64,000 bases of DNA. Source: Cytophagales bacterium (GTDB lineage Bacteria; Bacteroidota; Bacteroidia; Cytophagales; VRUD01). Both the position numbers and the translations under genes were made by a program. Positions 176 through 56,046 of the stretch are shown here, piece by piece (the stretch's first letter is position 1; each line of letters opens with the position of its first letter). The stretch spans positions 9,717 through 73,716 of the forward strand of contig VRUD01000001.1 of NCBI GenBank assembly GCA_019456305.1, given 5' to 3'. Below the pieces are notes generated by a model. That model searched no databases and had not been told where the DNA came from. It saw only the letters and a program-made list of their open reading frames with translations.

Positions 176-205
176 CCCTGCACCCCGAGTACTCGGGGTG
201 CGGGG
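176..205. repeat. Hairpin carrying the CCCGAGTACTCGGG core (copy 1)
   Basis: GCACCCCGAGTACTCGGGGTGC is a perfect palindrome at 180-201, and CCC/GGG extends the stem. Confidence 0.8.
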
Positions 206-357
206 TAAAGATACTAAATTTAGTTCCTAAAAATCTAGATTAAAAAGAAAGAAAAGTGATTGTAAATGTTATGATACTTCCTTAATTTAGTTGCCGTAAA
301 AGTAAAAAATTAATAATTACACTAATTTAATTTGTGTAATTCGTGTAATTCGTGGTT

Positions 358-1998
358 TCATTCCCAAATTATTGACTCTTCCTGCTCATACCATGCCTCA
401 TACTTACCTGAATGAATTTTTTCCAGGTCATTTCTTTTAACCTTCATGGTTGGGGTTAATAGTTCGTTTTCGATGGTCCATTCTTCGTTCAGAACAATTA
501 ATTTTTTAATCAATTCATGGTGGTCAAGTCCGGAATTTACCTTTTCCAATGTTTCTTCAAGGCCCTTAGTTATTTCTTCTTTAGGCTTCTTTTTTGCATC
601 TTCAGATAGCACTATCAAGGCGATTGGCTGGGGAATTCCTATACCAACTACGCAAACTTGCTCGATATTAATGTTGGCTGAAAGTTTTGACTCAATAGGG
701 GAGGGAGCAATATATTTACCTTTACTGGTTTTAAATAAATCCTTAACCCTTCCAGTGATCTTCAAAAACCCTTCATCATCTATCTCTCCTTTATCGCCTG
801 TTCTTAAATAACCGTCTGTAAAAGTTTCAGCAGTCATTTCGGGTTCTTTATAATAACCGTCCATCAATGCTTCATGTTTGATCAGTATTTCCCCTTCTTC
901 ACTCAATTTGACGTCACAATAAGGCAAGGGTGCGCCAACATACCCTATCTTTATCTTGTCATTTAAAGATACATGAGAATAACAGGTATTCTCGGTCATA
1001 GCATAAGCTTCCTGTATCCTGATGCCTATTTTTTCAAACCATTTTATTAATGAAACAGGGGTGGGTGCCGCGCCTGTAAAGACATTGGTTGCCTCATTCA
1101 ATCCCAGTCCTGTCCTTATCTTCTTTTTTATAATACCTGACAAAATGGGAATTTTAAGAAATGTATCCAGTTTTTTCTGAGGCAGCTTGTTGAGAACTCC
1201 TTGCTGGAATTTGGTCCAAATTCTTGGCACACCGAGAAACACTGTGGGCTTGGATTCAGCCAGGTTTTTTGCAAATGTGTCTATTGATTCGGCAAAAGAT
1301 ACGGAGCCGCCTGTGTATATGCTGCCCATTTCTACCAATAATCTTTCAGCAATGTGGGCCAGGGGCAGATAGGAGAAAAACCGGGATCCATTTCCCATTC
1401 CCAGATATTTAAATGCATGGCTGCAAGTAAATGCAAAATTGTGAAACTTGTGCATAACGCCCTTAGGCATACCTGTTGTTCCAGATGTATAGATAATCGT
1501 TGCCAATTCGGCTGGGTCTCTTACTACGTTCTCTTTGACCGGCTCCACCTTGGCAGTAAGATCATCCCAGTTGTCGTATTCGGTGTGTGAATAAAAGGGG
1601 TATGTGATGCAATATACATCATCGGGCACGCCCGGTTTCATAGAGGGATAATCGTCTAATTTTCCCACGAACAACACCTTTGTTTCGCTGTGTTCGAGTA
1701 TTTGTCTTACTGAATTGGCTGACAGGTTGGGATACAAGGGAACGGATATATGATCCGCCATCATAATGGCAAGGTCGGAGAGCATCCAATGCACACAGTT
1801 TTTGGATAAAATGCCGATCTTACTTTTTGGAGGCAGGTTCAAGCCCTTCAAGACAGCCGCCATTTTTCTTACTTCTTCACCTGTTTGCTTCCATGTGTAT
1901 TCATGGTAAACATCATCAATAGGCTGGCGCATATATACCTTATCCGGTGTTTCGCTTTCCCATTGGTAAAGCATTTCAAGGGGTGATTTGAGTTCCAT
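358..1998 (-). CDS. fadD: Long-chain acyl-CoA synthetase (AMP-binding family)
   Basis: Contains the AMP-binding signature IIYTSGTTGMPKGV and a C-terminal TGD..DEDGF..GRxKD-like motif (LRTGDKGEIDDEGFLKITGRVKD). I chose the MELKSPLEMLY start at 1996-1998; the longer ORF N-terminus reads through a repeat. Confidence 0.85.
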   Translation of the reverse strand: MELKSPLEMLYQWESETPDKVYMRQPIDDVYHEYTWKQTGEEVRKMAAVLKGLNLPPKSKIGILSKNCVHWMLSDLAIMMADHISVPLYPNLSANSVRQILEHSETKVLFVGKLDDYPSMKPGVPDDVYCITYPFYSHTEYDNWDDLTAKVEPVKENVVRDPAELATIIYTSGTTGMPKGVMHKFHNFAFTCSHAFKYLGMGNGSRFFSYLPLAHIAERLLVEMGSIYTGGSVSFAESIDTFAKNLAESKPTVFLGVPRIWTKFQQGVLNKLPQKKLDTFLKIPILSGIIKKKIRTGLGLNEATNVFTGAAPTPVSLIKWFEKIGIRIQEAYAMTENTCYSHVSLNDKIKIGYVGAPLPYCDVKLSEEGEILIKHEALMDGYYKEPEMTAETFTDGYLRTGDKGEIDDEGFLKITGRVKDLFKTSKGKYIAPSPIESKLSANINIEQVCVVGIGIPQPIALIVLSEDAKKKPKEEITKGLEETLEKVNSGLDHHELIKKLIVLNEEWTIENELLTPTMKVKRNDLEKIHSGKYEAWYEQEESIIWE

Positions 1999-2065
1999 TA
2001 TTATTGAGATTAATTTATTAAGAGTAATTTTGTGCAAAAATATGATTAATTTATCTAATAAAAAA

Positions 2066-2218
2066 TGAGTCCACTCCAAAAAGTCAATTTTCGCCACAAA
2101 AGCACAAAAACACAAAATCCCACAAAAGTTATTTGATTGATTTTCAATGTTTTGTGGGATTTAGTGCTTTGGTGTTTTAGTGGCATTTTTTCTTTTTTAA
2201 CTTTTTGGAGTGGACTCA
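2066..2218. repeat. 153-bp imperfect hairpin of the GTG-N5 periodic / GTGGCA-ended family
   Basis: Left arm is TGAGTCCACTCCAAAAAG..GCCACAAAAGCACAAAAACACAAAATCCCACAAAAG. Right arm is its imperfect reverse complement and ends ..GGAGTGGACTCA. The 41 nt at 2150-2190 are identical to 46719-46759. Confidence 0.8.
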
Positions 2219-2227
2219 AAAATGTAT

Positions 2228-4333
2228 TTACAAACTTCTACCCAGATACTTCACAATCAAAAAAAGCATAACGAATCCTAATAAGTAATTAAAGTACCAT
2301 GGAATGCCCATATTCACAAACACCGCACAAACCAATAAGCTTACCACAGCCACAGTGATTGCATAAGGCAATTGCGTTCTCACATGATCTACATGATTAC
2401 AATTGGTTGCTAATGAGCTCAGGATGGTTGTGTCAGAAATGGGCGAGCAGTGGTCACCAAATACCGAACCGGCCAGCACTACGGAAATAACATTATAGAA
2501 TATCGGCATTGATTGCCCGGTTTCAAAACCACTTTGCTGGCATAATAGCCAGGTAGCGGGAAGCATCAAAGGGTATAAAATTGCCATCGTGCCCCAGCTT
2601 GATCCGGTTGAAAATGAGATCAGCGCTGCCAGGATAAAAACTACAGTGGGCATCCATACGGGAGAAATAGCACCGCTGAACAAGGAAGTAAGAAAATCGG
2701 CTGTATGCAGATCCCCGGTTATTTTTGCCAGCGACCATGCCAGGATCAGGATCAGTACTGCAGGAAGCATGGTTTTGAAACCAAATACTAATGTATCCAT
2801 TATTTTTCTTAGCGGCATGATCCTTTGAATGACGGTTAACAGAATGGCTAAAACGACACCTGATAATGACGCCCAGAGCAAAGCCACATAAGCATCAGCA
2901 TTGCCGATAATGATCCCGAGTTTCCTGAAAAATGCTACATCCTGTCCGTTGTTAAGATGGTAAAGGTTTTCCCATACATTCATAAAGGAATAATCCTGTA
3001 TGACAATTCCGGCCTCCAATAAATTATCAAAAGATTTGTGAGCGCCTGTAACCAAAAGCGCTGCTATTGTTACTAAGACTACTGATATAACGGGAATAAA
3101 TGCATTGTACCACTTTTGTTTTACACCCTCGACAGGGTCCAAATCTTTAAGTGATTCATTATTTTCGAATTTCGAATTTCGAGTTTCGAGTTTCGAGTTT
3201 CGAGTTTCGAATTTCGAATTTCGAGTTTCGAATTTCGAGTTTCGAATTTTGAGTTTCGTCCCGAGTACTCGGGATCGAATTTCAGCCTTATACATTGACC
3301 CGAAATCCTTTTTAAAGTATATCAAAAAGAACATAAATACCAGTGTGAAAATGGGATAGAAAGCATATTGCAGCGAATTCAAAAACATTGAATAAGCATT
3401 TTCATTGATCCTTAAGTTAACCGAAGCATCCTGGATATAACCAAGCTCAGCTCCGATCCAGGTGGTAATAAATGCGATAGCAGCTACAGGCGCTGCAGTA
3501 CTATCCACTATATAAGCAAGCTTTTCTCTGGATATCTTGAACTTATCTGTTACCGGGCGCATGGTGTTGCCAACGATAAGTGTATTGGCGTAATCGTCAA
3601 AGAAAATAGCAATGCCCAGAAACCAGGTAATAAATTGCGCACTTCTGGCAGACTTTGCGTATTTTGATAATTTGTCAACAACTCCTGCCATCCCTCCGTT
3701 TTTGGAAATGATCGCTACCATGCCGCCAATCAATGTTGAAAATAAAATTACCGACAAATGCCCTGTGTCCATCATTGCGTTAATGATATAATTATCAAGC
3801 ACGTTGTACATGGCTGGGATCCAGTTTTTAGGATGAAAGCCAAGTAATATAAGCGCTCCTGAAAATATACCCAGGAAAAGCGACACCAACACCTCTCTGA
3901 ATATCAGCGCCATGGCAATGGCAATAAGCGGAGGCAGAATGCTGAGCCAGGCAGGGATATGTCTGATTTTGAAAAATTTAGCTATTCCGGAGTCCGTGTC
4001 CTTTACCGTTATTTTCTTTGATCCGTCAATTATGACAGGTGCAATGCCCATCCCTTCTTTAAACAGGATGATCTTGTTTTTACCATCAAACTGAAATACA
4101 AATTTTCCTTTAATAGACCTGTCTCTGTTGTCGTTCCTGTCTAAAGCGGTTATTTTTACATCTACATTTTTCCTGAACACATATTCGGGCGCTTCTATTA
4201 CAAAGTTTTTGATCCTGAGGGCTTGGACAGAAATACTGTATGTATCTTTGTTTTGCCGGGTAATTTTGATATTTTGTGCACAGGTAAAAATTGAGCATAA
4301 TAACAGCAGGCTTATCAATTGTACCTTTTTCAT
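2228..4333 (-). CDS. NhaC-family Na+/H+ antiporter with an N-terminal extracytoplasmic domain
   Basis: Many TM segments plus the NhaC-type block YANTLIVGNTMRPVTDKFKISREKLAYIVDSTAAPVAA. Start is MKKVQLISLLLLCSIFTCAQ (4331-4333), or 12 nt upstream at 4345. The central loop carries a repeat insertion. Confidence 0.75.
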   Translation of the reverse strand: MKKVQLISLLLLCSIFTCAQNIKITRQNKDTYSISVQALRIKNFVIEAPEYVFRKNVDVKITALDRNDNRDRSIKGKFVFQFDGKNKIILFKEGMGIAPVIIDGSKKITVKDTDSGIAKFFKIRHIPAWLSILPPLIAIAMALIFREVLVSLFLGIFSGALILLGFHPKNWIPAMYNVLDNYIINAMMDTGHLSVILFSTLIGGMVAIISKNGGMAGVVDKLSKYAKSARSAQFITWFLGIAIFFDDYANTLIVGNTMRPVTDKFKISREKLAYIVDSTAAPVAAIAFITTWIGAELGYIQDASVNLRINENAYSMFLNSLQYAFYPIFTLVFMFFLIYFKKDFGSMYKAEIRSRVLGTKLKIRNSKFETRNSKFETRNSKLETRNSKFENNESLKDLDPVEGVKQKWYNAFIPVISVVLVTIAALLVTGAHKSFDNLLEAGIVIQDYSFMNVWENLYHLNNGQDVAFFRKLGIIIGNADAYVALLWASLSGVVLAILLTVIQRIMPLRKIMDTLVFGFKTMLPAVLILILAWSLAKITGDLHTADFLTSLFSGAISPVWMPTVVFILAALISFSTGSSWGTMAILYPLMLPATWLLCQQSGFETGQSMPIFYNVISVVLAGSVFGDHCSPISDTTILSSLATNCNHVDHVRTQLPYAITVAVVSLLVCAVFVNMGIPWYFNYLLGFVMLFLIVKYLGRSL
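3165..3285. repeat. Heptamer array (TCGAATT/TCGAGTT)n plus CCCGAGTACTCGGG core, inside the NhaC ORF
   Basis: About 13 tandem 7-mers at 3165-3258 followed by TCCCGAGTACTCGGGA at 3259-3274. On the - strand this translates as ..EIRSRVLGTKLKIRNSKFETRNSKFETRNSKLETRNSKFE.. with no stop codon. Confidence 0.85.
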
Positions 4334-4540
4334 ATTAAAAGTCATTTAATAATTTGGTGCGGGGTAAAATTATTCTTTTTTTGAAAGATTACTATATTAA
4401 TGTTGAGACAATTTACTACCTTTGATAGCTACATAAAAATAAGAGTTGGCAGCGGCAGCAGCAGGAGGCAGGACTGCCAACTGCCGCTGCCTACTGCTGC
4501 TTGTTTGTTTTGTTGTCATTTGTGTAGCTATTTTCCTACA

Positions 4541-7195
4541 ATGAAAAAACCACTTATCATATTCTTATTAATTTTATCGGGACTGCCTGCTGCCGGCTTA
4601 TTTTCTCAAACCCCTCCCGACAAATCGGGATCTCCGCTGCGCTCCGAAAAGATTGACAGCCTCCTGCAGGTCTTAAAAAATGCCAAAGAAGACACCACTA
4701 AAATAAAAACCCTCATTAATAAAGAGATTGGTAATAAGCAGGGCATTGCAGTTTCAAACATCAATATTGGAGTGATTTATACCGAGCAAAAGCAGTATGA
4801 TAAAGCGATAGAACGAATTAGTGAAGGTTTAAAACTGGCAAAAAACATTGGCCATAAAGAATGGATGCAGCTTGCTTATAAGAGTTTTACAGATTTGTAT
4901 GTAAAACAGAAGAATCATAAAAAAGCTTTAGAGTATCACCAACTTTATGTGCAGACAAAAGACAGCCTCTTCAACGAAGAAAAATCCAAAGACATAGGCA
5001 GGGTGGAAGCAAGGCACGAGACAGAAATGCAGATGATGGAAGAGCAGGCAAAGGTGAAGGCTGAAGCGGATAAGATAGAAAAGGAAAAAAAACGCAGGAA
5101 TTACTGGCAGTATTCGGCTATTTTTATCGTATTTGTTATTTTGTTTTTGAGTTTATTCCTGCTGACAAGGTTTCATATTCCCATAACTGTTGCAGAAGGG
5201 ATCATTTTCACTGTATTTCTGCTGTTTTTTGAGTTTATCCTGGTATTGGCTGAGCCATGGATAGAAGCTATCTCACACGGAGAACCGGCTATTATCCTTG
5301 CATGCAATGCAGCGCTTGCAGGAATGATTTTTCCCTTTCACAGTTTCTTTGAAGCTAAGGTGAAAGAAAGGATAGTAAAACAGTCGGCAGTTGGCAATAG
5401 GCAGTTGGCAAAAAGAAAATCCAATATTACAAAACTTACCATGTTGTTGATGATTGCCTTTACTAATAGCTTTTACAGCTATTCTCCTACTTACACAGAG
5501 TCGAACTTTTCTAAACCTATGAAGTTTAGGAAAGTTATTGTTAAGGGAGCGCTTAGTTTTTCCAATTCAGATAATCAAGCAAAAACCCAATTCGTAAATC
5601 GTAAGTCTGAAATCGTAAATCCTACCATTGATTCTCTTGAAAATATGCTCAAAGCCCTTTCTGTTGGTGAGGGACGGGGCAAAAATGAAATTTCCAGATT
5701 AAAAATTCTAACCCGACTCATCCTGGAATACGAATTAACTGACCCTAATAAAGCCTTGCAATACGGAATGGAGGGTTTGGCTTTAGCAAAGCGTATGGCA
5801 AATTTGCCTGATGCATTTTTAGCAAAAGAAGGTAAAATAGGTGTAGCATCTTGTTTAAATAATATGGGGCTGGTTCATCAGGCACAAGGCAGCTACCAAA
5901 AAGCTACGGATCAATTCCTCTATTCATTAAAAATTAAAAAAGAATTATTTAACTCCCTCCCTACTGGTAAGGACAGTGAATGGATTAAACATGGAATTGC
6001 CAACAGCTTAATCAATCTCGGAGAAGTAAACAGACTTCAGGGAAATTACGACAAAGCCATTGATTATGATCTGCAATCTTTACAAAATTATGAGCAGTTA
6101 AAAGAATCATCTTTCAAAGCTCTGGCAAGGTCTGGCCAAATAGGGATTTCAAATTGTTGGAATAATATTGCTATAATTTATTATTACCAGCGTAACTATG
6201 AAAAAACCCTGGATTATTTCTTTCAATCTATAAAAATTAAAGAGAAACTAGGCAATAAAAGATTAATTGCAGAAAATTTAGGTAATATAGGGGTTATTTA
6301 TAAAATTCAGGGTAAAATTGAAAAAGCAATGAAGTATTATATGAAATGTTTAACACTAAGAAAGCAATTGGGATCAACTGGAGGATTTTCCAGCATTTTG
6401 ATTAATATCGCAAATATTTATACCATGCAGGGTAAATATAAAAAAGCCCTAAACTACCACTTTCAGGCATTGAAAATTACTCAACAGTTAGGTTATAAAG
6501 ATCAATCTGCTTTATGTCTGGATAATATTGGGGATATATATTCAAAGCAAAAGTATTATAAAAAGGCCATCTTATACTTTCACAAAGGTATAAATATTGC
6601 AAAGGAGATTGGATCTAAAATAGTACTCATGGATAGCTATAAACACCTTTCTAATACGTATGCCCAACTGGTAGAACACCCTCTTGCTCCTATTACCAGG
6701 GCAGTTGCTTACAAGCAAGCTTTTGAATACCACAAATTATATGCAGCTATTAAAGACAGCCTGTTTAATGAAGAAAAATCAAAAGAGATCGGCAGGTTGG
6801 AAGAGCACTACCTGATAGAAAAGAAAATAGCGAAAGAAAAAGCTAAAGCCAAAGTAGAGGCGGTGATAAAATCCGAAAAAAAAGCGCAAAGGCATAGACT
6901 TCAATTTATGGGCAGCTTTATTGTCATTGTAGCATTGTTAATAGTTGTATTCACACTTGCCGGGGTTTATATTCCGATTGGTTTTGCAAAAATACTGATT
7001 TTCATTATCTTCGTGCTGTTATTTGAATTTATCCTGGTGTTGTTAGACCCAATGGTAGATGAATTTTCCGGTGGAGCACCGGCAATAAAGCTTGCTTTCA
7101 ATGCCATGGTGGCAGGGATGATGTATCCTTTACACAGGTTTCTTGAGTCTAAACTTAAAAGTATGATATTAAAAAAGAAAACGAAGAGAACATAA
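4541..7195 (+). CDS. TPR-repeat membrane protein; apparent fusion of two tandem paralogous units
   Basis: MKKPLIIFLLILSGLPAAGLFSQ is a signal-like start at 4541. The block TPR - DSLFNEEKSK(D/E)IGR coiled coil - 3 TM with LLFFEFILVL occurs twice (about 4541-5380 and about 5640-7195). The 4400 start of the track ORF reads through an upstream hairpin. Confidence 0.6.
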   Translation: MKKPLIIFLLILSGLPAAGLFSQTPPDKSGSPLRSEKIDSLLQVLKNAKEDTTKIKTLINKEIGNKQGIAVSNINIGVIYTEQKQYDKAIERISEGLKLAKNIGHKEWMQLAYKSFTDLYVKQKNHKKALEYHQLYVQTKDSLFNEEKSKDIGRVEARHETEMQMMEEQAKVKAEADKIEKEKKRRNYWQYSAIFIVFVILFLSLFLLTRFHIPITVAEGIIFTVFLLFFEFILVLAEPWIEAISHGEPAIILACNAALAGMIFPFHSFFEAKVKERIVKQSAVGNRQLAKRKSNITKLTMLLMIAFTNSFYSYSPTYTESNFSKPMKFRKVIVKGALSFSNSDNQAKTQFVNRKSEIVNPTIDSLENMLKALSVGEGRGKNEISRLKILTRLILEYELTDPNKALQYGMEGLALAKRMANLPDAFLAKEGKIGVASCLNNMGLVHQAQGSYQKATDQFLYSLKIKKELFNSLPTGKDSEWIKHGIANSLINLGEVNRLQGNYDKAIDYDLQSLQNYEQLKESSFKALARSGQIGISNCWNNIAIIYYYQRNYEKTLDYFFQSIKIKEKLGNKRLIAENLGNIGVIYKIQGKIEKAMKYYMKCLTLRKQLGSTGGFSSILINIANIYTMQGKYKKALNYHFQALKITQQLGYKDQSALCLDNIGDIYSKQKYYKKAILYFHKGINIAKEIGSKIVLMDSYKHLSNTYAQLVEHPLAPITRAVAYKQAFEYHKLYAAIKDSLFNEEKSKEIGRLEEHYLIEKKIAKEKAKAKVEAVIKSEKKAQRHRLQFMGSFIVIVALLIVVFTLAGVYIPIGFAKILIFIIFVLLFEFILVLLDPMVDEFSGGAPAIKLAFNAMVAGMMYPLHRFLESKLKSMILKKKTKRT

Positions 7196-7201: not shown

Positions 7202-7221
7202 AATCCGATAGCTATCGGATT
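7202..7221 (+). terminator. Perfect 20-bp palindrome just after the TPR gene stop
   Basis: AATCCGATAGCTATCGGATT begins 7 nt after the stop at 7195. Confidence 0.45.
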
Positions 7222-7430
7222 GATTTAAAAATTATTATGGATGTTATTTTTTGGATAAAATTGATCGCTTTCTGGGCATTTGCTCTTGTTTTCTGTTTAT
7301 TATTTGCCCCGGAAGGTGATACACTTATATTTGGAAATAAGCTAAAACGTGGGACAGTAATTAAAATTATGTATTTATTCTTTTGGATTCTCTCAAGCTT
7401 GTTAATTCTTTGGGGCGTCATATAAATATA

Positions 7431-7742
7431 GTTGGCAATCGGCAATCGGCAGTCGGCAGTCCACAATCGACAGTCCACAGTCGGCAGTTGGCAGTTGGCA
7501 GTCCACAGTCCACAATCGGCAGTTGGCAGTCCATCCCGAGTACTCGGGAGCAGTCGGCAATTGTTTTTTGCCGACTGGGGACTGCCGACTGCCGATTGAT
7601 TAAGTTAAGTTTCTAAATCCAGTTGCCATATTGTTTTAATGGTTTGATTGTTATTTTCTTTTTTGTCGACTGTGGACTGCCGACTGCCGACTGATTTTTT
7701 TGCCGACTGGAGACTGTAGATTGCCGACTGCCGACTGCCAAC
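7431..7742. repeat. ~310-bp foldback built from GGCAGTC/GGCAGTT/CCACAGT heptamers around a CCCGAGTACTCGGG core
   Basis: 7431-7533 holds heptamers in GGCAGTY orientation and the core is at 7534-7549. 7570-7606 and 7664-7742 hold the complementary words (CCGACTG, GACTGCC). It lies between convergent genes. Confidence 0.8.
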
Positions 7743-7745: not shown

Positions 7746-9296
7746 TTATTCACTTATTCCCTTTCCCGGGAGTGCAGCAATTATTCTATTGGCCATCTTC
7801 TGTATATTATCACCGATGATCCGTTGGATGTTATTTGAGTTTGAGTTATAGAAGATCTTTATTTTGCTGCCTGCAATTTGTTTGCCCTCCCTGTTATAAA
7901 TGGAGTAATGAACTATAAAATCCCGTTCATAATCCTGCCTCGTCCTGTCTAAACAATGCTCATAATTGGTATTTACTTCAAATTGAGTAACGAAGATATA
8001 ATATCCCAGGTCGTATTTTTTGTTGAAGTATTCAAAAAATTTAGGGTCTTTGATCTTTGCTCCAAAATATTTATTTTCAAACTTCATCTTGCCAAACCTG
8101 CCTGAAAAAGGAGATTCAGGGCTTTTTTTTAATTTTCTTTTCACTGTTTCGAGAGATACAGGCAAAGCCTTTTCTTTTGGAGGGGCATAATTATCTACAT
8201 AATCCGGTTCATTGACCAAATCCTGGTAATTATAAGTTAACGACCTGTATATTTTATTCAGATCAGTTACCGAATCTTCAATGGAGCCTCCCATAAGATG
8301 CACGGTTTCATAATCAGGGGACTGGATCATTGTATTTAAGTTTTTACGGAAAACCTGCCTTACTTTAGTTCTTGGAATACCAGATGCAGCAGCGATCTCA
8401 TCATCAGCATCGGAAAAATATAAATAAGGGTCAAAAGGTACGACTAAAACTTTTTTCTGGGTTCCGGGAACTGGGTTCTTGTCGGAGCGAAGCATAGATC
8501 CCCCCGAGTACTCGGGGGGGGTATTGGTTTCTGGGTACTGATCATCTATTCCCTCTATTTCCCCTTTTACTTCTATTTCCGTATTTACTTCTTTTTCCTC
8601 TATTTCCTCTACATCCTCTACTTCCTTTACTTCCTTTATTTCCTTTACTTTCTTCATATCTTCTTTTTTGCGTGACTTTATATATTCCTTTGCTAACACT
8701 TTTTCCACTGTTTCAACTTCACCCTTTGCCTTATATCCAACAATAAGTTTCTGGCCTGCTTTTATATGCAGGTCATTCAATCCCATTAATTGATCAAGAG
8801 ATATATTGTATTTTTTTGATAAACTCCAAAGGGTCTCTCCTGGTTTTACAATATGAATTATAGCTTCTTTGAATGTTTGTTTTTCTACCAGTATTGTAGG
8901 TTGATGTTCTCCGGTTTCCACGATATGTATGATAATACCTTTTTCAGAAATTCCGGATCTTTTGATGACATCAGGATGATATGGAATGTTGATGACCTGC
9001 CCTGTTTTCAAACCGTTTTCCAATGCAGGATTAATTTCCAGTAGCCCGGCAATGGGTACGCCATGTTTTGTAGAAATTCCATAGATGGTCTCACCGGCAG
9101 AAACCAGGTATATGAGATGGAGCTTGCCTTTGATCTTCTGGACACCGATCGAATCGCAGGAAGGATATGGGGAAATAGAGGAATAGGGAAATAAGGATTT
9201 CGAGTTTCGAGTTAAGGGTATAAGAGTATGTGTTATAGCAGAATAAACTATTGAACTAAAAAAAAACAATAGAAAAATAACAGAATTGTATTTCAT
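7746..9296 (-). CDS. LysM-domain protein (2 LysM) with an acidic KE-rich linker and an unknown C-terminal domain
   Basis: Two LysM-like blocks: YLVSAGETIYGISTKHGVPIAGLLEINPAL..GQVINIP and HIVKPGETLWSLSKKYNISLDQLMGLNDL..GQKLIV. It has an N-terminal signal sequence. Confidence 0.7.
   Translation of the reverse strand: MKYNSVIFLLFFFSSIVYSAITHTLIPLTRNSKSLFPYSSISPYPSCDSIGVQKIKGKLHLIYLVSAGETIYGISTKHGVPIAGLLEINPALENGLKTGQVINIPYHPDVIKRSGISEKGIIIHIVETGEHQPTILVEKQTFKEAIIHIVKPGETLWSLSKKYNISLDQLMGLNDLHIKAGQKLIVGYKAKGEVETVEKVLAKEYIKSRKKEDMKKVKEIKEVKEVEDVEEIEEKEVNTEIEVKGEIEGIDDQYPETNTPPEYSGGSMLRSDKNPVPGTQKKVLVVPFDPYLYFSDADDEIAAASGIPRTKVRQVFRKNLNTMIQSPDYETVHLMGGSIEDSVTDLNKIYRSLTYNYQDLVNEPDYVDNYAPPKEKALPVSLETVKRKLKKSPESPFSGRFGKMKFENKYFGAKIKDPKFFEYFNKKYDLGYYIFVTQFEVNTNYEHCLDRTRQDYERDFIVHYSIYNREGKQIAGSKIKIFYNSNSNNIQRIIGDNIQKMANRIIAALPGKGISE
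8500..8519. repeat. CCCCCCGAGTACTCGGGGGG palindrome inside the LysM ORF
   Basis: Perfect 20-bp palindrome, translated in frame as ..PPEYSGGS.. Confidence 0.8.
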
Positions 9297-45044: not shown

Positions 45045-45045
45045 A

Positions 45046-45342: not shown

Positions 45343-46001
45343 GAGTGCTGGAAAAAATAAGTGGGATAGATGAATTAGAAAAATTCCAGCTTGTAGGGGG
45401 AACGGCTCTTGCCTTGCAACTAGGTCATCGTCAGTCGTTTGACCTTGATTTTTTTGCTGAAAGGGGCTTCAATAAAGAATACCTGGAATTACGGCTTAGA
45501 GCGCTGTTCCCTGAAAAAAAAGATTTAAGTCAGTCAATTAATGGCTTCTCCTGTAAGTTAGACGGAGTGAGATGTGATTTTTACGATTGGAAAACGGGTT
45601 ATATAAGGGAGCCGGTAGATTTTAAGGGAATAAAAATCGCGTCAACAGAAGATATTGCTGCTTTTAAATTGGATGCTATAACCAGGCGTACAACAATCAA
45701 AGATTTTTGGGATATTGCTGAGTTATTGGATAGGTATTCTATCAAGGAAATGATAATGTTTTACAAAGAAAAGTACCCATACCAGGATATAAGAATTGTT
45801 ATGGATTCGTTGCCCAAAGTTGAAAAAATAACAGAAAAGCCAGAGTATAAGATATTTAAGAATTGCACTTTAAAAGACGTAAATAAAAAGATAGAAACAG
45901 CAACGAAAGAATATATTGCAAATCAAATAAAGCAGAAAAAGGAAAAACAAGAGGAGCGGGTAAAAAAAGCAGAAAAACTTATAGAGCGAAAACAGTTGTG
46001 A
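45306..46001 (+). CDS. AbiEii/AbiGii-family nucleotidyltransferase toxin-like protein
   Basis: FQLVGGTALALQLGHRQSFDLDFF is the characteristic N-terminal NTase block of DUF1814/AbiEii. It has a lysine-rich tail. Confidence 0.7.
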   Translation: MLYEKTVTSDILRVLEKISGIDELEKFQLVGGTALALQLGHRQSFDLDFFAERGFNKEYLELRLRALFPEKKDLSQSINGFSCKLDGVRCDFYDWKTGYIREPVDFKGIKIASTEDIAAFKLDAITRRTTIKDFWDIAELLDRYSIKEMIMFYKEKYPYQDIRIVMDSLPKVEKITEKPEYKIFKNCTLKDVNKKIETATKEYIANQIKQKKEKQEERVKKAEKLIERKQL

Positions 46002-46787: not shown

Positions 46788-47047
46788 AATAGTAAAATTA
46801 AATTCATGGCAAAAGTACTTCATCTCTCACAGAATATCAACCAAATTTATTTTATAAAAAAAACATCACTAAAAATTTGTATATTAAAAAACCATCCAAT
46901 ACCTTCGCCCGCAATTTTTGATCCACGCCTGTAGGCGCGGGATCAATATTTAATTTATTATTTAAACAAACACGGAACACGGAACGTACAGACGCCCAAA
47001 TTGGGCGTCTCAACATTCCTCAAATTCCTCAAAACAAATTAATTATC

Positions 47048-47587
47048 ATGAACAAGACAATAAAAAAAATTTTAGCAATTACAGCAATAGCTTTGATTGC
47101 TATGCCTTTGTTTTACAGTTGTAAGAAAGGCGAAAATGACCCGTTTATTTCTTTACGTTCCAGGGATAAACGAATTACCGGGGAATGGAAATTGGTTTCA
47201 GCTGAAGAAACTTCTACTTGGAGTCGTGACTTTGGATTTGGCGCTACTAGTGGTTCAACTACTACTATTTATGATGGTAAGACATCAGTTACAACCGGGG
47301 GTGGTTCTTCCTTATACACATTAACCATAACTTTTGAAAAAGATGGAACTGCCACTTATAAGGAAGATGATGATGGTGATATTGAAGACGTCACAGACGA
47401 ATGGTTTTGGTTAGATTCGAAGAAAAACAAAACGACCATTTCTCATCCATTTGGATTTTTTGTAGTTGATCAACTTAAGAACAAAGAATTAATTTTAAAA
47501 GATTCCGGAACAAATAATCAAAGTGGGTCTGGATGGTATGACAATAATTCATGGGAAGAAACCTGGACTTTTGAAAAACAAAAGTAA
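47048..47587 (+). CDS. Lipocalin-like lipoprotein (paralog family A)
   Basis: Lipobox ..PLFYSC|KKGEND and ITGEWKLVS motif. 179 aa. Confidence 0.6.
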   Translation: MNKTIKKILAITAIALIAMPLFYSCKKGENDPFISLRSRDKRITGEWKLVSAEETSTWSRDFGFGATSGSTTTIYDGKTSVTTGGGSSLYTLTITFEKDGTATYKEDDDGDIEDVTDEWFWLDSKKNKTTISHPFGFFVVDQLKNKELILKDSGTNNQSGSGWYDNNSWEETWTFEKQK

Positions 47588-47610: not shown

Positions 47611-47652
47611 AAAAAAGCCCTGCTCCCGAGTACTCGGGACGGGGCTTTTTTT
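47611..47652 (+). terminator. Intrinsic-terminator-like hairpin with the CCCGAGTACTCGGG core in its loop
   Basis: AAAAAAGCCCTGC-TCCCGAGTACTCGGGA-CGGGGCTTTTTTT, 24 nt after the stop. Confidence 0.7.
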
Positions 47653-48104
47653 CAACTACATGAATGTTTTTTTAAAAGAATAAAAATCGTTAAATTTGAT
47701 TAGTACAATCAGAGTCTCCCGGAAATCCTAAATTCAAACATATTACTATCTTAAAAAGGGGACTCTGATGGGACTCCTTAAAAATATTAGAATATATTTT
47801 TCGCACACATCAGAGTCCCCTGTTCAGGTTTTTGGTATGACTGCCTGCAACGTGTAGGCTTTTCGAAAGGCAAGCAGGTACGAAGTTTGTATTGGCGGGA
47901 GACTCTGATGGGACTGAAATTTATTTTATAAAAAAACATCACTAAAAATTTGTATATTAAAAAACCATCCAATACCTTTGCCCGCAGTTTTTGATCCACG
48001 CCTGTAGGCGCGGGATAAATATTTAACTTATTATTTAAACAAACACGGAACGTACAGACGCCCAAATTGGGCGTCTCAACATTCCTCAAAACAAATTAAT
48101 TATC

Positions 48105-48950
48105 ATGAAAACAATTAAAAGATCTTTAGTGGTAATAGCCACTTGTTTATTGGTTTTAGCAGTTATGGAAAGTTGTAAAAAAACCGCAACACCAAAAAAG
48201 TTAGACGGTAAATGGAAAGCTACAAAAGGTACGAGTACTCGTACAAGTACACAAAAATTGACGTGGTTGGGGTGTACACCAAATGATTGCAGCAGTACCT
48301 CAACTACTACCGAAACTTTTGATGGTGCTACCTGGACGGGTACAATGACATCTTCGAGTACTGATGGGAATGGAATTGTCACACCTAATCCGGACGTACC
48401 CATTGATGATAAGGAAACCATGTCTTTATCTTTTGATAAAAAGAACGGTACCTTTGAGCAATCATTTGTAGGGACTAATACTTATAAAAATCCTTATTGG
48501 AGCAATGTATATGATGATACTACCGCAGCTCCTCTATATAATGGTGGCGCTCTGGATCGAAAAGATGTTACTTCATCAACCGGAACGATGAAAGGAGATT
48601 TTCAGGTTACGGGAGGACTTGGTGATACTGATAAGAAATCTCAGTTTATTCTTTTTGGGACATCATGGACTGATAATTGGACTTCAACTTATTCCTACTT
48701 CCTGACTGGTACTGATAGTTCTGTTAATGTTACGAATTTGTATGTCCAAGATTGGCCTAATTATATTAAAGTGCCAACATCTGAATCAGGTACAGATGGT
48801 TCAATCGGAGAATCAAGTGATGGAGATGTATGGACTGTAACAGAGAACAAAAAAGGTACAATGACAATGAACCAAACTGAAAGTTCTACTAATTCAGATG
48901 GAAGCAACACCTCTTCTTATACCGAGGAATTAACTCTGGAAAAGGAATAA
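48105..48950 (+). CDS. Thr/Ser-rich lipoprotein (paralog family A)
   Basis: Lipobox ..AVMESC|KKTATPKK and LDGKWKAT motif. 281 aa. It shares 5' and 3' flanks with 47048-47587. Confidence 0.6.
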   Translation: MKTIKRSLVVIATCLLVLAVMESCKKTATPKKLDGKWKATKGTSTRTSTQKLTWLGCTPNDCSSTSTTTETFDGATWTGTMTSSSTDGNGIVTPNPDVPIDDKETMSLSFDKKNGTFEQSFVGTNTYKNPYWSNVYDDTTAAPLYNGGALDRKDVTSSTGTMKGDFQVTGGLGDTDKKSQFILFGTSWTDNWTSTYSYFLTGTDSSVNVTNLYVQDWPNYIKVPTSESGTDGSIGESSDGDVWTVTENKKGTMTMNQTESSTNSDGSNTSSYTEELTLEKE

Positions 48951-49026: not shown

Positions 49027-49066
49027 AAAAAGCCCTGATCCCGGGTATTCGGGAGGGGCTTTTTTT
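49027..49066 (+). terminator. Terminator-like hairpin with core variant CCCGGGTATTCGGG
   Basis: AAAAAGCCCTGA-TCCCGGGTATTCGGGA-GGGGCTTTTTTT. Confidence 0.65.
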
Positions 49067-49124
49067 CAACTACATGAATGTTTTTTTAAAAGAATAAAAA
49101 TCGTTAAATTAGTAATTACCTTTT

Positions 49125-49693: not shown

Positions 49694-49732
49694 AGACACA
49701 AAGGTATGAAAAAAATCTGAATAAGAATTAAA

Positions 49733-51977: not shown

Positions 51978-52763
51978 TTAAATGCAGTATCTATTCCATA
52001 TCTCCCATGCCTTCTCCGCCTGCAAATACAACATTTCAAGCCCGTTTTTAATTTTAGCTCCTTTTTCTTTTCCTTTCCTTAGAAACAAAGTTTCTTCGGG
52101 ATTATACACAAGGTCAAAAAGGAAATGCGAATGATCAATTGCCTTGTATGGTATGTCAGGGCATTTATTCACATCCGGGAACATGCCTAAAGGTGTTGCG
52201 TTGATTATTAATTTATGTTGTTTTACTATTTCTTCAGTTAGTTCATTATATTGGGTACTGAGTTCTGGGTTCTCGGTGCTGGGTTTTTGGCGGGAAACAA
52301 GTTGATAATCTATACCAAGGTTTTTAAATACTATGCTGACAGCTTTTGCCCCTCCCCCGGTTCCCAGGATCATTGCTACTAAATTTTTGGACGAATCTCC
52401 TGGCAAAAATTTCAACAAAGATTCTTTGAAACTAACTACATCTGTGTTGTAACCAATAAGCTTTGAACTTTGAACTTTGAACTCTGAACTCTGAACTTTT
52501 ATCGTATTAACAGCACCAGCTTCTTCAGCTATTTCATCCAGTTCATCTAAATAAGGAATGATTGATTCTTTATAGGGAATGGTAACATTTAAACCGGTTA
52601 TATCCGGATTATTTTTTATAAAATCAGGAAAATCACTTATTTGTTTTAATTCAAATAGTTCATAACAAGCATTTTTTATGCTTCCTTTATTAAACTTTTC
52701 TGTAAAATACTGTGATGAAAAAGAATGGGTGAGGGGAAAACCTATTAATCCAAAAGTTCTCAA
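51978..52763 (-). CDS. aroE: Shikimate dehydrogenase
   Basis: GLIG.PL.HS.S, NVTIPYK, GAVNTI...GYNTD and GTGGGAKA motifs. It carries two heptamer-repeat tracts in frame. Confidence 0.9.
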   Translation of the reverse strand: MRTFGLIGFPLTHSFSSQYFTEKFNKGSIKNACYELFELKQISDFPDFIKNNPDITGLNVTIPYKESIIPYLDELDEIAEEAGAVNTIKVQSSEFKVQSSKLIGYNTDVVSFKESLLKFLPGDSSKNLVAMILGTGGGAKAVSIVFKNLGIDYQLVSRQKPSTENPELSTQYNELTEEIVKQHKLIINATPLGMFPDVNKCPDIPYKAIDHSHFLFDLVYNPEETLFLRKGKEKGAKIKNGLEMLYLQAEKAWEIWNRYCI

Positions 52764-53807: not shown

Positions 53808-53925
53808 AAAAAAGTAGGTAGCAGCAATTGACAGTGGTAGTCCCTACGCCTACGAATTACGAATTTCCCGAATTACGAATTCGTAATTCTTAGGAAAGGC
53901 GCTCTATGAAAAAAATAAACATAGA

Positions 53926-54693: not shown

Positions 54694-54752
54694 TTTATTA
54701 TGATAAGCTAAGGTTTAAAATTAAGTTTGGCAAATATCTGAAAAAAAATTTA

Positions 54753-54804
54753 AAATGCCTAAAAGAAGAAATGCCTAAAATGAAAAATGCCTAAAATTTT
54801 AGGC
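54753..54804. repeat. Three AATGCCTAAAA words ending in the palindrome TGCCTAAAATTTTAGGCA
   Basis: Words at 54754, 54770 and 54786. Perfect 18-bp palindrome at 54787-54804, just downstream of the epimerase stop. Confidence 0.75.
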
Positions 54805-54817
54805 AATATAAGCATTT

Positions 54818-55975
54818 TTACAAGCCATACCTTCTTTTTAATTCATCACACGTCCATCTTATGGTGTCATTGATGTCTCTGAAATTCAAGCCTTCTTTTC
54901 CGTTAGACAGGCTTAATAAATTCCTTATCTTTCCATTATTGTAATGCAATGAATTTAAAGATGATTTTACAATATCTTTAGTGACCAAGGGCGGCTTTCC
55001 TGTGAAAAGAGATCTTATTATTTCAAATCTCCATGCAATACCACCCCAAAATGGTGATACCATGATATTGGGTTTTCTTTTATCAAAATTCAGCGCAATA
55101 ATATCAAATAATTCCTTATAAGATATTTTACCGGCAAAAATTAAGTACCTTTCATTATTTATCCCGGTATTGATCAACTGCAGCGTGATTTCAGCCAGAT
55201 CCCTCACATCAATATAATGCACCTCCCGGGTAGTATAAAAAGGATATTGTTTCCATACATATTGAAATATTTTTGAACTGCCTTTTTTCCAATTACCAGG
55301 ACCTAATACCACTGCCGGGTTTAATATAACGGCATTGAGTCCTTCTTCTATGCCTCGCCATACTTCCATTTCCGCAAGATATTTTGTTTGGGCGTATAAT
55401 GACACTTCTTCATAGACTGAAAATTGGATTTTTTCATTAATACCAGCCTTCCCCCCACTATTCCTTACCGAATCGGTGAATGGGTGAATCGGTGAATCGG
55501 TGAATTGCTTCGTTTTTCTTCTCTCCGTTTCTCCGATTCCCCGTTTCTCCGTTTCAGGAGGGCTGGTGTGGCTGCCGCTTATTCCCCGTTTCTCCGATTC
55601 AGGGAGGCTGGTAGGTTTGCCTATTGCCGCAACCGAACTTAAATGACAAAGTTTTTTTACACCTTTTTTGATACATACATTTACAATATTTGAGGTACCC
55701 TCTACATTTGTTTTGAATATTAATTTCTTGTCATGGTAAGATAATGAAACCATGGCAGCCGTATGGATAACCGTATCAACGCCTTCAATACTTTTTTCTA
55801 AACCCGTAATATCAAGTATATCTCCTTCTATCCACTCGATTTTATCAGCAATATCAGCAACGAGAGACAGATCGCTCGTTTTTCTTTTTAAAGCGCGCAG
55901 GCGATTGCCTTGCTGTAGTAATTTTCTGGCTATAAAACTCCCTACCAAACCAGTGCAGCCGGTGATGAAAAACAT
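54818..55975 (-). CDS. NAD-dependent epimerase/dehydratase (SDR) family protein
   Basis: GCTGLVG Rossmann motif at the N-terminus and a YAQTK catalytic Y..K. An insertion of about 50 aa lies between SSVAAIG and the YxxxK region. Confidence 0.8.
   Translation of the reverse strand: MFFITGCTGLVGSFIARKLLQQGNRLRALKRKTSDLSLVADIADKIEWIEGDILDITGLEKSIEGVDTVIHTAAMVSLSYHDKKLIFKTNVEGTSNIVNVCIKKGVKKLCHLSSVAAIGKPTSLPESEKRGISGSHTSPPETEKRGIGETERRKTKQFTDSPIHPFTDSVRNSGGKAGINEKIQFSVYEEVSLYAQTKYLAEMEVWRGIEEGLNAVILNPAVVLGPGNWKKGSSKIFQYVWKQYPFYTTREVHYIDVRDLAEITLQLINTGINNERYLIFAGKISYKELFDIIALNFDKRKPNIMVSPFWGGIAWRFEIIRSLFTGKPPLVTKDIVKSSLNSLHYNNGKIRNLLSLSNGKEGLNFRDINDTIRWTCDELKRRYGL
55450..55605. repeat. Expanded copy of the CGGAGAAA-word element, in frame in the epimerase
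   Basis: Its rc contains CCTGAATCGGAGAAACGGGGAAT...CGGAGAAACGGAGAGAAGAAAAACGAAGCAATTCACCGATTC..GGTAAGGAATAGTGG. It encodes ..PESEKRGISGSHTSPPETEKRGIGETERRKTKQFTDSPIHPFTDSVRNSGG.. Confidence 0.85.
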
Positions 55976-56009
55976 ATTTCTGATTATTAGTTGTTATACC
56001 CGATGCCAA

Positions 56010-56046
56010 CCCTGTTAAATAATCCCGAGTACTCAGGATAACAGGG
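56010..56046. repeat. Hairpin CCCTGTTA..ATCCCGAGTACTCAGGAT..TAACAGGG
   Basis: Core at 56022-56039, located between the epimerase start and the kmo stop. Confidence 0.75.

Follow-up and report, generated by a model that had tools for sequence, protein, structure and literature searches.

The window analysed here, a 64-kb stretch of a Cytophagales MAG, carries ten copies of a short palindrome dispersed at a density of ~1 per 6 kb (Table 1). All ten copies given in the preliminary description were recovered, with their variants and coordinates, as matches to CCCGAGTACTCGGG at 0–2 mismatches (10 versus 0.02 expected); in the composition-shuffle check, run on the 64-kb window, the family stands far above 100 shuffles, none of which reached 10 matches. 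The repeat is a perfect palindrome of 16 nt (the 16-mer), TCCCGAG-TA-CTCGGGA, with constant stems and a variable central dinucleotide (TA >> CA > AC, GC, CG, AA). Half-sites alone are almost absent, with one solitary TCCCGAGT at 2914 in the window; this near-absence, together with the constant stems, establishes the palindrome as the unit. Beyond ~16–22 nt the window copies have nothing in common, except for copies 8 and 9, which are one duplicated terminator-like cassette with the next 56 nt 100% identical. The earlier view that no REP, BIME or MITE family fits is upheld: gathering and E-value scans of the window against Rfam gave no match at any copy, and the 12-mer/14-mer core sequence was not found in the literature searched. 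A DNA uptake sequence (DUS/USS) does not fit: such motifs abound as single copies in both orientations and pair up as inverted repeats only in part, whereas the 64 kb hold just one TCCCGAGT/ACTCGGGA apart from the palindrome.

Eight of the ten copies are intergenic, most of them 35–340 nt downstream of a gene 3′ end. The other two (3260 and 8503) lie in frame within called genes, a point on which the preliminary description was silent. Copy 2 encodes ...IRSRVLGTKLKIRNSKFETRNSKFETRNSKLETRNSKFEN... in a loop of the NhaC-type antiporter that is ~20 residues shorter in 13 homologues, and copy 4 encodes PPEYSGG in a low-complexity linker of the LysM protein. Also missed were the relatives at 4615 and 48229 and the looser one at 44088. 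The sequence at 48229 has the core's central 10-mer CGAGTACTCG, with the outer 3 bp altered on both arms and the palindrome kept; membership of the 44088 sequence in the family is uncertain.

Table 1. Copies of the palindrome and candidate relatives in the 64-kb window
Feature	Position	Strand	Match to CCCGAGTACTCGGG at	Sequence and structure	Location
Copy 1	176–205	−	184	core 184–197 inside perfect 22-nt palindrome GCACCCCGAGTACTCGGGGTGC (180–201); outer stem GCCCTGCAC/GTGCGGGGT; fold −33.3 kcal/mol, z −5.2	~160 nt downstream of AMP-binding gene 3′ end (358–2115, minus strand)
Copy 2	3163–3274	−	3260	core TCCCGAGTACTCGGGA (3259–3274) abutting heptamer array TTTCGAG/TTTCGAA (13.7 units, 3163–3258)	array and core in frame within NhaC-type antiporter gene (2228–4345, minus strand)
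Variant copy TCCCGACAAATCGGGA	4615–4630	+		identical 6-bp stem, loop CAAA	encodes PPDKSGS directly past signal peptide of TPR protein (gene called from 4541)
Copy 3	7430–7595	.	7535	core 7534–7549, side hairpin of three-way junction formed by heptamer array 7430–7533 (units CAGTCGG/CAGTCCA/CAGTTGG) and its inverted counterpart (TGCCGAC units, 7569–7595); fold −72 kcal/mol, z −9.3	between convergent genes
Copy 4	8500–8519	−	8503	20-nt palindrome CCCCCCGAGTACTCGGGGGG	in frame within LysM protein gene (7746–9296, minus strand)
Copy 5	11912–11929	−	11914	ATCCCGAGCACTCGGGAT; T-to-C change in loop	35 nt downstream of pterin-4a dehydratase gene, 33 nt upstream of dxr (both minus strand)
Copy 6	23257–23292	+	23269	core TCCCGGGCACTCGGGA (23268–23283); outer stem CCTGTCTG/CAGGCAGG; stem change A-to-G giving G·T on plus strand	~100 nt upstream of probable start (~23372) of PKD/Por_Secre_tail gene
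Looser relative (uncertain) TCCCGCCTCAGGCGGGA	44088–44104	+		TCCCG/CGGGA ends as in core	85 nt after deaminase stop
Copy 7	44240–44304	+	44290	core 44289–44304; almost no outer stem; 21 nt after short heptamer array TTGCCAA ×4 (44240–44267)	286 nt downstream of deaminase gene, 110 nt upstream of sodA
Copy 8	47612–47651	+	47625	terminator-like hairpin AAAAAGCCCTGC-TCCCGAGTACTCGGGA-CGGGGCTTTTTT; z −6.3	37 nt past stop of ORF 47048–47587
Possible diverged relative GTACGAGTACTCGTAC	48229–48244	.		central 10-mer as in core	inside ORF 48105–48950
Copy 9	49027–49066	+	49040	core TCCCGGGTATTCGGGA, T-run after; paralogue of copy 8; two transitions, both giving G·T pairs on plus (sense) strand	
Copy 10	56010–56046	−	56024	CCCTGTTA...TCCCGAGTACTCAGGA...TAACAGGG; single stem change giving G·U on minus (sense) strand	between two minus-strand genes, 52 nt after FAD-binding gene

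Each core had been placed at the tip of a different larger hairpin. This holds for about seven of the ten copies and fails for three: the core at 7535 is a side branch in the heptamer-array hairpin, and those at 44290 and 8503 have almost no locus-specific outer stem. The pair at 47625 and 49040 share a duplicated cassette and are not independent. The stem and T-run hairpins of copies 8 and 9, the CCCTGTTA/TAACAGGG outer stem of copy 10 and the heptamer arrays of copies 2 and 3 were all confirmed. In predicted folds, the terminator form (a G+C-rich stem followed by a T-run) is found at copies 8 and 9 and weakly at copy 7; copies 1, 5, 6 and 10 have no T-run, and the genic copies do not take this form either. 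Elsewhere, six loci (L003, L029, L094, L095, L100 and L229) have a G+C-rich stem and then a T-run downstream of a gene. Stem transitions are G·U-compatible on the inferred sense strand in six cases out of six (copies 6, 9 and 10, and loci L155 and L158), with a binomial p of ~0.016 on only six substitutions.

Of 121–123 copies, 10% have an outer stem that pairs perfectly over 5 bp or more, against 0.2% of control positions; ~3/4 of copies in other genomes are without a clear outer stem. In the same set the flanks have a symmetric preference (YCR-core-YGR), and just 24% of copies fall within open frames 120 codons or longer, the background being 82%. Close to copies (within 25 nt), arrays of period 7 are over-represented (13 of 29 arrays there versus 146 of ~760 elsewhere). 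Hairpins are not universal, and some copies sit in heptamer arrays or coding linkers.

The identical 16-mer occurs in at least 120 genome stretches, including 73 from Bacteroidota, 23 from Patescibacteria and nine from one Aminicenantia MAG, and in 15 phage contig stretches. Since the scan covered 596 Gb, where by an arithmetic estimate ~40–140 such 16-mers are expected by chance, lone matches in odd taxa (e.g. Streptomyces) are meaningless. Carriers among cultured isolates are Marivirga aurantiaca, two Maribellus species, Aestuariivivens and Natronoflexus; no cyanobacterium is among the 120 genome matches listed. Independent contigs totalling 848 kb, mostly from Flavobacteriia and fetched by an unrelated pattern, contain no 16-mer. 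A search of the copy neighbourhoods gave no recurrent protein family, and Pfam assignments of most genes in the window (64 kb of the genome only) include no transposase family. Inverted doublets are rare, with one (L109) among ~135 copies in other genomes.

Three orthologous comparisons show relatives whose hairpin has an ordinary loop, while one lineage has the 16-mer instead. At a TonB terminator, relatives L369, L371 and L373 have GCACCAC-CTGTTTATA-GTGGTGC and a T-run, and L003 has GCACCA, the 16-mer, TGGTGC and a T-run. At a phage terminator (L229 versus L236 and L231), L236 reads GCAGTCAC-TGAAAATC-GTGACTGC and L229 reads GGCAG, the 16-mer, CTGC. The third case is a helix, backed by covariation (9 of 12 pairs compensatory), that lies upstream of the reverse transcriptase of a phage; L152 carries ACGAAAGC and L150 the 16-mer. 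The reverse transcriptases are 100% identical, and the 410 aligned nt otherwise differ solely by a 4-nt patch within a second loop. In all three pairs only the hairpin apex differs, without target-site duplication, and the exchanged segment is the loop, sometimes with 1–4 of the top base pairs. The preliminary description had proposed a short element landing in the loops of pre-existing hairpins and a search for empty sites. The hairpins with ordinary loops in other genomes are such sites, and the proposal gains support from them in a refined form, namely loop replacement. The loop is replaced by the 16-mer and not simply interrupted.

These alignments show the 16-mer at the apex of hairpins that, by comparison with the relatives, predate its arrival, the direction of change being inferred from which state is commoner. 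The phage-family differences could also result from homologous recombination between already differing phages instead of a fresh event. All this evidence comes from other genomes; the window lineage has no close relatives in databases (its best NhaC homologue is 59% identical), and because of this no empty site was found for the window's own copies.

Other settings of the 16-mer are diverse. It occupies arms of degenerating tRNA copies and the variable arm in a larger mobile repeat, lies inside or beside heptamer arrays, and occurs in frame in hydrophilic protein linkers; it thus turns up at any site that can tolerate a short, stable hairpin. A GIY-YIG gene (Pfam PF01541) is inserted beside tRNA-Asp or tRNA-Asn at two loci, L082 (Sphingobacteriales) and L097 (labelled Saccharibacteria), next to a duplicated partial tRNA with arm segments of 4, 7 and 12 nt replaced by TCCCGAG-NN-CTCGGGA. 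In Polaribacter (L050), the 16-mer lies within a 104-nt insertion bordered by a 7-bp direct duplication (AATTTAC), and four relatives, 90–95% identical, are without the entire insertion. The element has no Rfam match and is one of the copies of a repeat that is very common in Flavobacteriia, with stems that are conserved and arms that vary. In most copies of that repeat an A+T-rich hairpin unrelated to the core forms the arm; the core fills it only rarely, and hence entered this element secondarily. Several copies in the Aminicenantia MAG, in Patescibacteria STB_112 and in Bacteroidales MAGs have longer flanks in common. Together with the Polaribacter carrier, these larger genome-specific repeats indicate that some of the spread is hitch-hiking.

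As it has replaced the loops of existing hairpins, the 16-mer resembles in its behaviour a mobile DNA module of very small size. On balance, TCCCGAG-TA-CTCGGGA is probably a tiny dispersed palindromic hairpin cap, copied between places and between genomes. The hairpin would be present first, and its loop would be exchanged for the 16-mer with the flanks otherwise unchanged. Movement would occur at the DNA level, directed by structure and not by cut-and-paste transposition: either a stalled nascent strand would switch template to a donor hairpin and back, or an extruded loop would be cleaved and then patched by repair from another copy. Copies might persist because their G+C-rich 6-bp stem keeps or strengthens a hairpin in the RNA transcribed from the host locus, such as a terminator or a 3′ stabiliser, which fits with the G·U-compatible substitutions on the sense strand. 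In the Cytophagales genome, amplification has brought the module to its present density.

It is tempting to go further and propose, as a possibility held tentatively, a new class of mobile DNA in which a 16-nt palindrome spreads within and between phyla (FCB group, Patescibacteria and phages) by structure-directed loop replacement, making use either of replication or repair by the host or of a small nuclease that acts in trans. The SLX1-like GIY-YIG cassettes are the single lead to such a nuclease. If true, no horizontally shared mobile element smaller than this 16-nt palindrome would be known, and it would act as a general force in the remodelling of terminators, structured RNAs and protein linkers.

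The 16-mer might instead be an internal piece of longer, lineage-specific MITE-like repeats, with no mobility of the core itself. The Polaribacter insertion with its duplication, the abundance of the Flavobacteriia repeat to which it belongs and the extended shared flanks of the Aminicenantia, STB_112 and Bacteroidales copies all agree with this. It is nevertheless unlikely, since the core only rarely fills the arm of that repeat, the window copies are unlike outside the palindrome (the duplicated cassette excepted) and only the apex differs in the orthologous comparisons. Selection on a functional signal that is not mobile, either a protein binding or processing site or an optimal terminator cap with copies arising by local mutation, would account for the intergenic bias with its preference for gene 3′ ends, the two copies with T-runs, the G·U-compatible stem changes and the position of the 16-mer at the apex of a conserved phage RNA helix. 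However, relatives differ by discrete, length-changing replacements in otherwise identical sequence and not by stepwise mutation. Identical 16-mers are found in unrelated phyla, pseudo-tRNA fragments and protein-coding linkers, and are missing from 848 kb of related Flavobacteriia DNA. To our knowledge, GUAC is not a specially stable tetraloop, and equally stable caps number in the thousands. Selection of this type is thus quite improbable, and replacement of loops by a mobile cap is preferred.

The loop-replacing cap might also be a site recognised by a selfish structure-specific nuclease (SLX1/YhbQ-like GIY-YIG) or a restriction-type enzyme, or a scar of repair that such an enzyme leaves behind. 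The core consists of two CYCGRG sites around a 2-nt centre, whose variability would suit a 2-nt staggered cut, and the nucleases of L082 and L097, each beside a tRNA and partial tRNA arms replaced by the 16-mer, are only 40% identical to each other, which suggests more than coincidence. Such an origin is nonetheless very unlikely, since a GIY-YIG gene lies within 8 kb at just two of ~120 loci and at none in the window, the neighbourhoods of copies have no recurrent protein family, and the pseudo-tRNA arms may simply be neutral hairpins that can be invaded. An artefact of metagenome assembly (adapter, linker or misassembly) could be suspected because the carriers are mostly MAGs; this reading is effectively refuted by the cultured isolates listed above, by assemblies from many laboratories and platforms, by the existence of copies that are mutated or that code in frame, by compensatory patterns, and by concordant independent assemblies of the same locus.

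Several known systems resemble the mobile cap in part. Rickettsia palindromic elements are mobile, palindromic and G+C-rich, and lie in genomes rich in A+T. In quasi-palindrome correction by template switching (Ripley; Lovett), replication copies within one hairpin, rewrites its arms and apex, and produces perfect palindromes with no duplication of the target; for the 16-mer, the apex copied would be foreign and constant and would need to come from another locus. The GC clusters, mobile G+C-rich palindromes in the A+T-rich mitochondrial genomes of yeast, duplicate a short stretch of their target (PMC4478555). Like GC clusters and Rickettsia elements, the 16-mer lands in intergenic DNA and occasionally in frame without destroying genes, but these elements are longer (~30–150 nt) and each is confined to one organelle or genus. 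REP/REPIN sequences, mobilised by RAYT transposases, are imperfect palindromes with a GTAG or CGTC head, usually arranged as inverted doublets, species-specific and linked to a RAYT gene (PMC3116915; PMC3733652). They too are short palindromic extragenic repeats, often downstream of genes, that can act as RNA hairpins, whereas the 16-mer is a perfect palindrome starting with TCCC, flanked as described above and without GTAG or CGTC, and its window copies are all single. Intrinsic (Rho-independent) terminators are not a sequence family; most 16-mer copies have no T-run, and some are in coding DNA or 5′ regions. MITEs differ by their target-site duplication, which the three orthologous pairs lack and the 104-nt Polaribacter carrier has.

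Small mobile modules of this kind appear to have been described previously only in cyanobacteria, with the small dispersed repeats (SDRs) as the closest known analogue; the preliminary description did not name this close conceptual relative. The SDRs of Nostoc punctiforme were reportedly proposed by Elhai et al. in 2008 (Genome Res 18:1484) to be among the smallest mobile elements. SDR1–8 are hairpin-capable dispersed repeats of N. punctiforme and relatives (PMC5861425; PMC4390886; bioRxiv 10.64898/2026.06.24.733823). SDRs are described as 21–27 nt long (SDR5 21 nt) against 16 nt for the 16-mer, or ~22 with degenerate flanks. They are reported only in Nostocaceae, whereas the 16-mer has a Cytophagales host, is identical across several phyla and phages, and has no cyanobacterial carrier among the matches listed. 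The insertion point of SDR5 within HIP1 is fixed, whereas the 16-mer replaces a hairpin loop. The two are alike in being very short (tens of nt), dispersed, hairpin-capable and without an associated gene, and in being embedded in tandem heptamer repeats, small mobile repeats and short palindromes. Both of the first two embeddings, typical of SDRs, are found for the 16-mer: heptamer arrays border copies 2, 3 and 7 of the window, and the Polaribacter core lies inside a mobile repeat.

The core is a palindrome, TCCCGAG-NN-CTCGGGA, mostly with TA at its centre (the 16-nt pattern TCCCGAGNNCTCGGGA). At up to two mismatches, CCCGAGTACTCGGG has 10 matches in the 64-kb window against 0.02 expected from shuffles, and the ten copies listed in the preliminary description are borne out together with their coordinates. 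Inspection of the flanks indicates that the unit kept at most copies is the 16-mer TCCCGAGTACTCGGGA. The palindrome is the unit because half-sites are nearly always paired: the solo half-site TCCCGAGT occurs just once in the window, and eight of the ten CCCGAG hexamers found there are parts of the copies. One family variant and two possible relatives had been missed (see table).

Upon folding, ∼7 copies have a locus-specific outer stem. The claim that each copy tips a larger hairpin holds for these and fails elsewhere: the core at 7535 is a side hairpin in a three-way junction formed between a heptamer array and an inverted partner array, and copies 44290 and 8503 have little outer stem. Nor is the hairpin different at each copy, as had been stated, since 47625 and 49040 both lie in a duplicated cassette and represent one context. 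The near-identical parts of this cassette cover ∼210 nt upstream and ∼85 nt downstream, with 56 nt past the hairpin identical; its two adjacent ORFs, of 179 and 281 aa, are unrelated to each other in a repeat scan and neither has a Pfam match. The arrangement resembles a cassette with exchanged coding content. The heptamer arrays, the hairpins made of a stem and a T-run and the CCCTGTTA/TAACAGGG stem described earlier are all real.

Core copies, related sequences and neighbouring features (positions without a locus name refer to the window)
Position	Feature	Sequence or remark
184, 3260, 7535, 8503, 11914, 23269, 44290, 47625, 49040, 56024	Core copies 1-10
Copies 6, 9, 10; phage loci L155, L158	Stem transitions
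4615	Family variant	TCCCGACAAATCGGGA; stem unchanged, loop CAAA
48229	Relative	GTACGAGTACTCGTAC; central 10-mer shared with core
44088	Looser relative	TCCCGCCTCAGGCGGGA
3163-3258, 7430-7533	Heptamer arrays
47612-47651, 49027-49066	Stem plus T-run hairpins
56010-56046	CCCTGTTA/TAACAGGG stem
46844-47052 / 47917-48109	Duplicated cassette, upstream part
47612-47696 / 49027-49110	Duplicated cassette, downstream part
132-168, minus strand	DUF805b RNA motif, Rfam RF02914	41.6 bits, gathering score 35.6; 16 nt from copy 1
45028-46001 and 27773-28491	Toxin-antitoxin-type pairs	DUF6922 + AbiEii, nucleotidyltransferase + HEPN
32793-32852	Perfect 60-nt palindrome, spacerless	TGTCGGGTGTTTCCTTGTAGAGACGTTGCA followed by TGCAACGTC...; between convergent genes
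7202-7221	Palindrome	AATCCGATAGCTATCGGATT; 7 nt past TPR gene stop
5381-5410, 5592-5621, 23367-23395, 52461-52499, 53851-53889, 9198-9213	Short heptamer arrays	Differing units
53870-53889	Junction of two opposed heptamer arrays
L050 7287-7397	Insertion with core (Polaribacter)
L082 5847-6730; L097 1-560	GIY-YIG cassettes

The window has a G+C content of ∼38% and ordinary housekeeping and toxin-antitoxin genes, with no transposase among the Pfam assignments that cover most of its genes. A cyanobacterial origin, suggested at first by the heptamer arrays, was rejected: identical DNA lies on a metagenome scaffold that encodes Por_Secre_tail proteins, and a Cytophagales MAG has an annotated protein 100% identical to one of the window. 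Eight copies are intergenic, seven of them 35-340 nt past the 3′ end of a gene; the exception, 23269, precedes the likely start of a PKD-domain gene by ∼100 nt. The two canonical copies within genes are both in frame. At 3260, the core and 96 nt of heptamer array code for ...IRSRVLGTKLKIRNSKFETRNSKFETRNSKLETRNSKFEN..., part of a hydrophilic loop that is ∼20 residues shorter in 13 homologues of this NhaC antiporter; at 8503, the core codes for PPEYSGG in the linker of a LysM protein. The variant at 4615 codes for PPDKSGS directly after a signal peptide. Near the left end, any DUF805 gene downstream of the DUF805b motif would lie beyond the window.

The proposal that the element enters the loops of pre-existing hairpins is upheld by three pairs of empty sites (hairpins with an ordinary loop) and filled sites (orthologous hairpins with the 16-mer), in which the loop is replaced. 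All three lie at loci of other genomes; for the window itself, the nearest homologue of one of its proteins is 59% identical, too distant for an empty/filled comparison. Downstream of a TonB gene, relatives at 92-94% identity carry the hairpin AAAGCACCAC-CTGTTTATA-GTGGTGCTTTTTT, one with a compensatory change in the stem, where the filled locus L003 has AAAAAGCACCA-TCCCGAGTACTCGGGA-TGGTGCTTTTTTTT. Downstream of an orthologous phage gene, one contig (L236) has GCAGTCAC-TGAAAATC-GTGACTGC followed by a T-run, another (L231) a different plain hairpin and two more (L233 and L248) GCAGTCAG-CTCCGATGAATCGGGA-CTGACTGC; the filled counterpart, L229, has GGCAG-TCCCGAGTACTCGGGA-CTGC and a T-run. The third case is a covarying helix that precedes a phage reverse-transcriptase gene (Pfam RVT_1), with compensatory changes in 9 of 12 pairs among 41 sequences and an apex usually made of a 2-bp stem and a GNRA loop. 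This apex is ACGAAAGC in contig L152 and the 16-mer in L149-L151, which encode a reverse transcriptase 100% identical to that of L152 and differ from it over 410 aligned nt by just one further change, a 4-nt patch in another loop. Mutated versions of the 16-mer are found at the same helix in five other contigs (L155 and L158-L161).

The loop is exchanged in all three cases, in some together with the top of the stem, and none of the three shows a target duplication. We infer the direction of change, from empty to filled, by taking the commoner state as the older one. The phage differences could stem from recombination among phages instead of fresh events. As to the phage locus itself, the conserved RNA helix lies ∼30-100 nt upstream of the start and has a hypervariable apex in 80 IMG/VR contigs (L149-L228); the reverse transcriptase does not reach the thresholds of the group II, retron or DRT families, and we suspect a candidate diversity-generating retroelement.

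The core sequence is demonstrably copied between unrelated loci and genomes, and it takes over the apex of hairpins present beforehand. As no duplication is left and the loss of loop and stem is variable, the process resembles a structure-directed replacement of patches more than it does transposition. An insertion with a duplication is seen at one locus, L050 of Polaribacter, where 111 nt missing from four relatives 90-95% identical consist of a 104-nt element with the core and a 7-bp duplication, AATTTAC; this fresh insertion with its target duplication split two overlapping genes. Here the core has travelled along with a larger element, of the family GTCAGTTCGAGTAA-[variable hairpin]-TTGTATCGAGAA...TTCTCGATAC-[variable hairpin]-CACTCGAAnTGAC. 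The core is a secondary occupant of the variable arm, because this arm mostly holds an unrelated A+T-rich hairpin. The repeat, cloverleaf-like, ∼100 nt long and without an Rfam match, abounds in Flavobacteriia contigs of marine and freshwater origin (at least 120 matches, L249-L368). Another hairpin repeat, GTCATTGCGAGGA...GACGAAGCAATC or GTCATTCCGAG...GAGGAATC, is found in several phyla and has the core as its apex in six loci (L069, L250, L052, L079, L089 and L122); the GTCATTCCGAG... superfamily was rejected as the general context of the core, accounting for 5% of copies only.

Patch replacement might proceed by template switching between hairpins at replication, or by cleavage of the loop and subsequent repair off another copy. 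Perfect symmetry, including the palindromic centres GC and CG in variants, indicates a DNA-level process. Retention of the copies would appear to operate on the RNA: each of the six stem transitions seen leaves a G·U pair when read on the sense strand of the adjacent transcript (p ∼0.016 by our own arithmetic, on a small sample).

Known families differ from the core in several respects. REP/REPIN elements have a GTAG/CGTC head, occur as doublets and are associated with a RAYT gene, whereas the core is without such a head, its window copies are not in doublets and no RAYT gene was seen among the window genes. Classical MITEs leave a duplication and the core itself leaves none, in agreement with the earlier remark that the element could not be matched to a known REP/BIME/MITE family, as far as REP/REPIN and classical MITE features go. 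An uptake sequence was rejected, since half-sites do not stand alone. Rfam has no family at the core copies, and the motif string had no match in the literature searched, where topic searches gave analogues only. Closest in behaviour, by description and not by sequence, are the Nostocaceae small dispersed repeats (SDRs); a looser resemblance is to the GC clusters of yeast mitochondria and to the palindromic elements of Rickettsia. To our knowledge, cyanobacterial SDRs are the sole described very short mobile repeats of this kind, their mechanism is not known and they are believed to be limited to one family. Such repeats are poorly understood, and the core is shorter, is found in other phyla and stays unchanged across distant phyla and phages.

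The exact 16-mer occurs in at least 120 stretches of a species-representative genome collection. Chance alone would give roughly 40-140 matches in 596 Gb (our own arithmetic), so the raw count proves nothing and the evidence is carried by taxonomic skew and context statistics. Among the matches listed, 73 are from Bacteroidota, 23 from Patescibacteria, 9 from one Aminicenantia MAG and 11 from other taxa, with 4 lacking a taxon name; several MAGs have 3-9 copies. Perfect outer stems of 5 bp or more surround 10% of copies versus 0.2% of control positions, the three flanking bases show a symmetric preference (YCR before and YGR after the core), and long open frames hold just 24% of copies versus a background of 82%. 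The stems are constant and the central dinucleotide varies (TA >> CA > AC, GC, CG, AA). With TRF, period 7 is the commonest tandem period in core-bearing loci and is enriched next to copies. An independent 848 kb, mainly Flavobacteriia contigs fetched via an unrelated pattern, holds 0 copies; the element is therefore sporadic overall and greatly amplified in the genome of the window. Phages were rejected as a major vector, as the 16-mer was found in just 15 viral stretches, of which several, high in G+C and coding, are probably due to chance.

A tRNA scan of all loci found no core inside an intact tRNA. In two loci, L082 and L097, a small GIY-YIG (SLX1/YhbQ-like) gene is inserted directly after tRNA-Asp or tRNA-Asn, within cassettes that each include a second copy of the tRNA 3′ part and of the terminator and that form a tandem repeat in L082. 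In the partial tRNA duplicates, 12, 7 or 4 nt of the anticodon arm or T-loop are replaced by TCCCGAG-NN-CTCGGGA. The cassette looks like a selfish nuclease gene aimed at the tRNA. A GIY-YIG gene near the core is limited to 2 loci, and all-against-all clustering of 3,376 ORFs of the loci gave no protein family repeatedly near copies.

The core gives terminators stable stems, changes the arms of functional RNAs and gives proteins extra in-frame residues, NhaC and LysM being examples; it can also mislead gene callers and repeat-based binning. Clean empty/filled pairs with only the hairpin loop swapped offer a testable system for hairpin rewriting in vivo, and cultured isolates among the carriers (Marivirga aurantiaca and Maribellus species) make experiments feasible.

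Other palindromes were noted in passing. In the fetched loci, a sample itself selected by the core, no other palindrome family is abundant. One such locus holds a palindrome of 28 nt with the same centre as the 60-nt one, GTTGCATGCAAC; this hints at a second apex module. The palindrome AATCCGATAGCTATCGGATT resembles two others: CCCGATAACTATCGGG, which two unrelated MAGs (L013 and L070) carry ∼20 nt away from the core, and GCCCGATGAAAATCGGGC, situated at the apex of a phage helix (L187); palindromes of this type may be a sister family of the core. Several of the short heptamer arrays are coding (in the genes for the TPR protein and shikimate dehydrogenase, and in the PKD gene's signal peptide), and the two opposed arrays join as a perfect palindrome.
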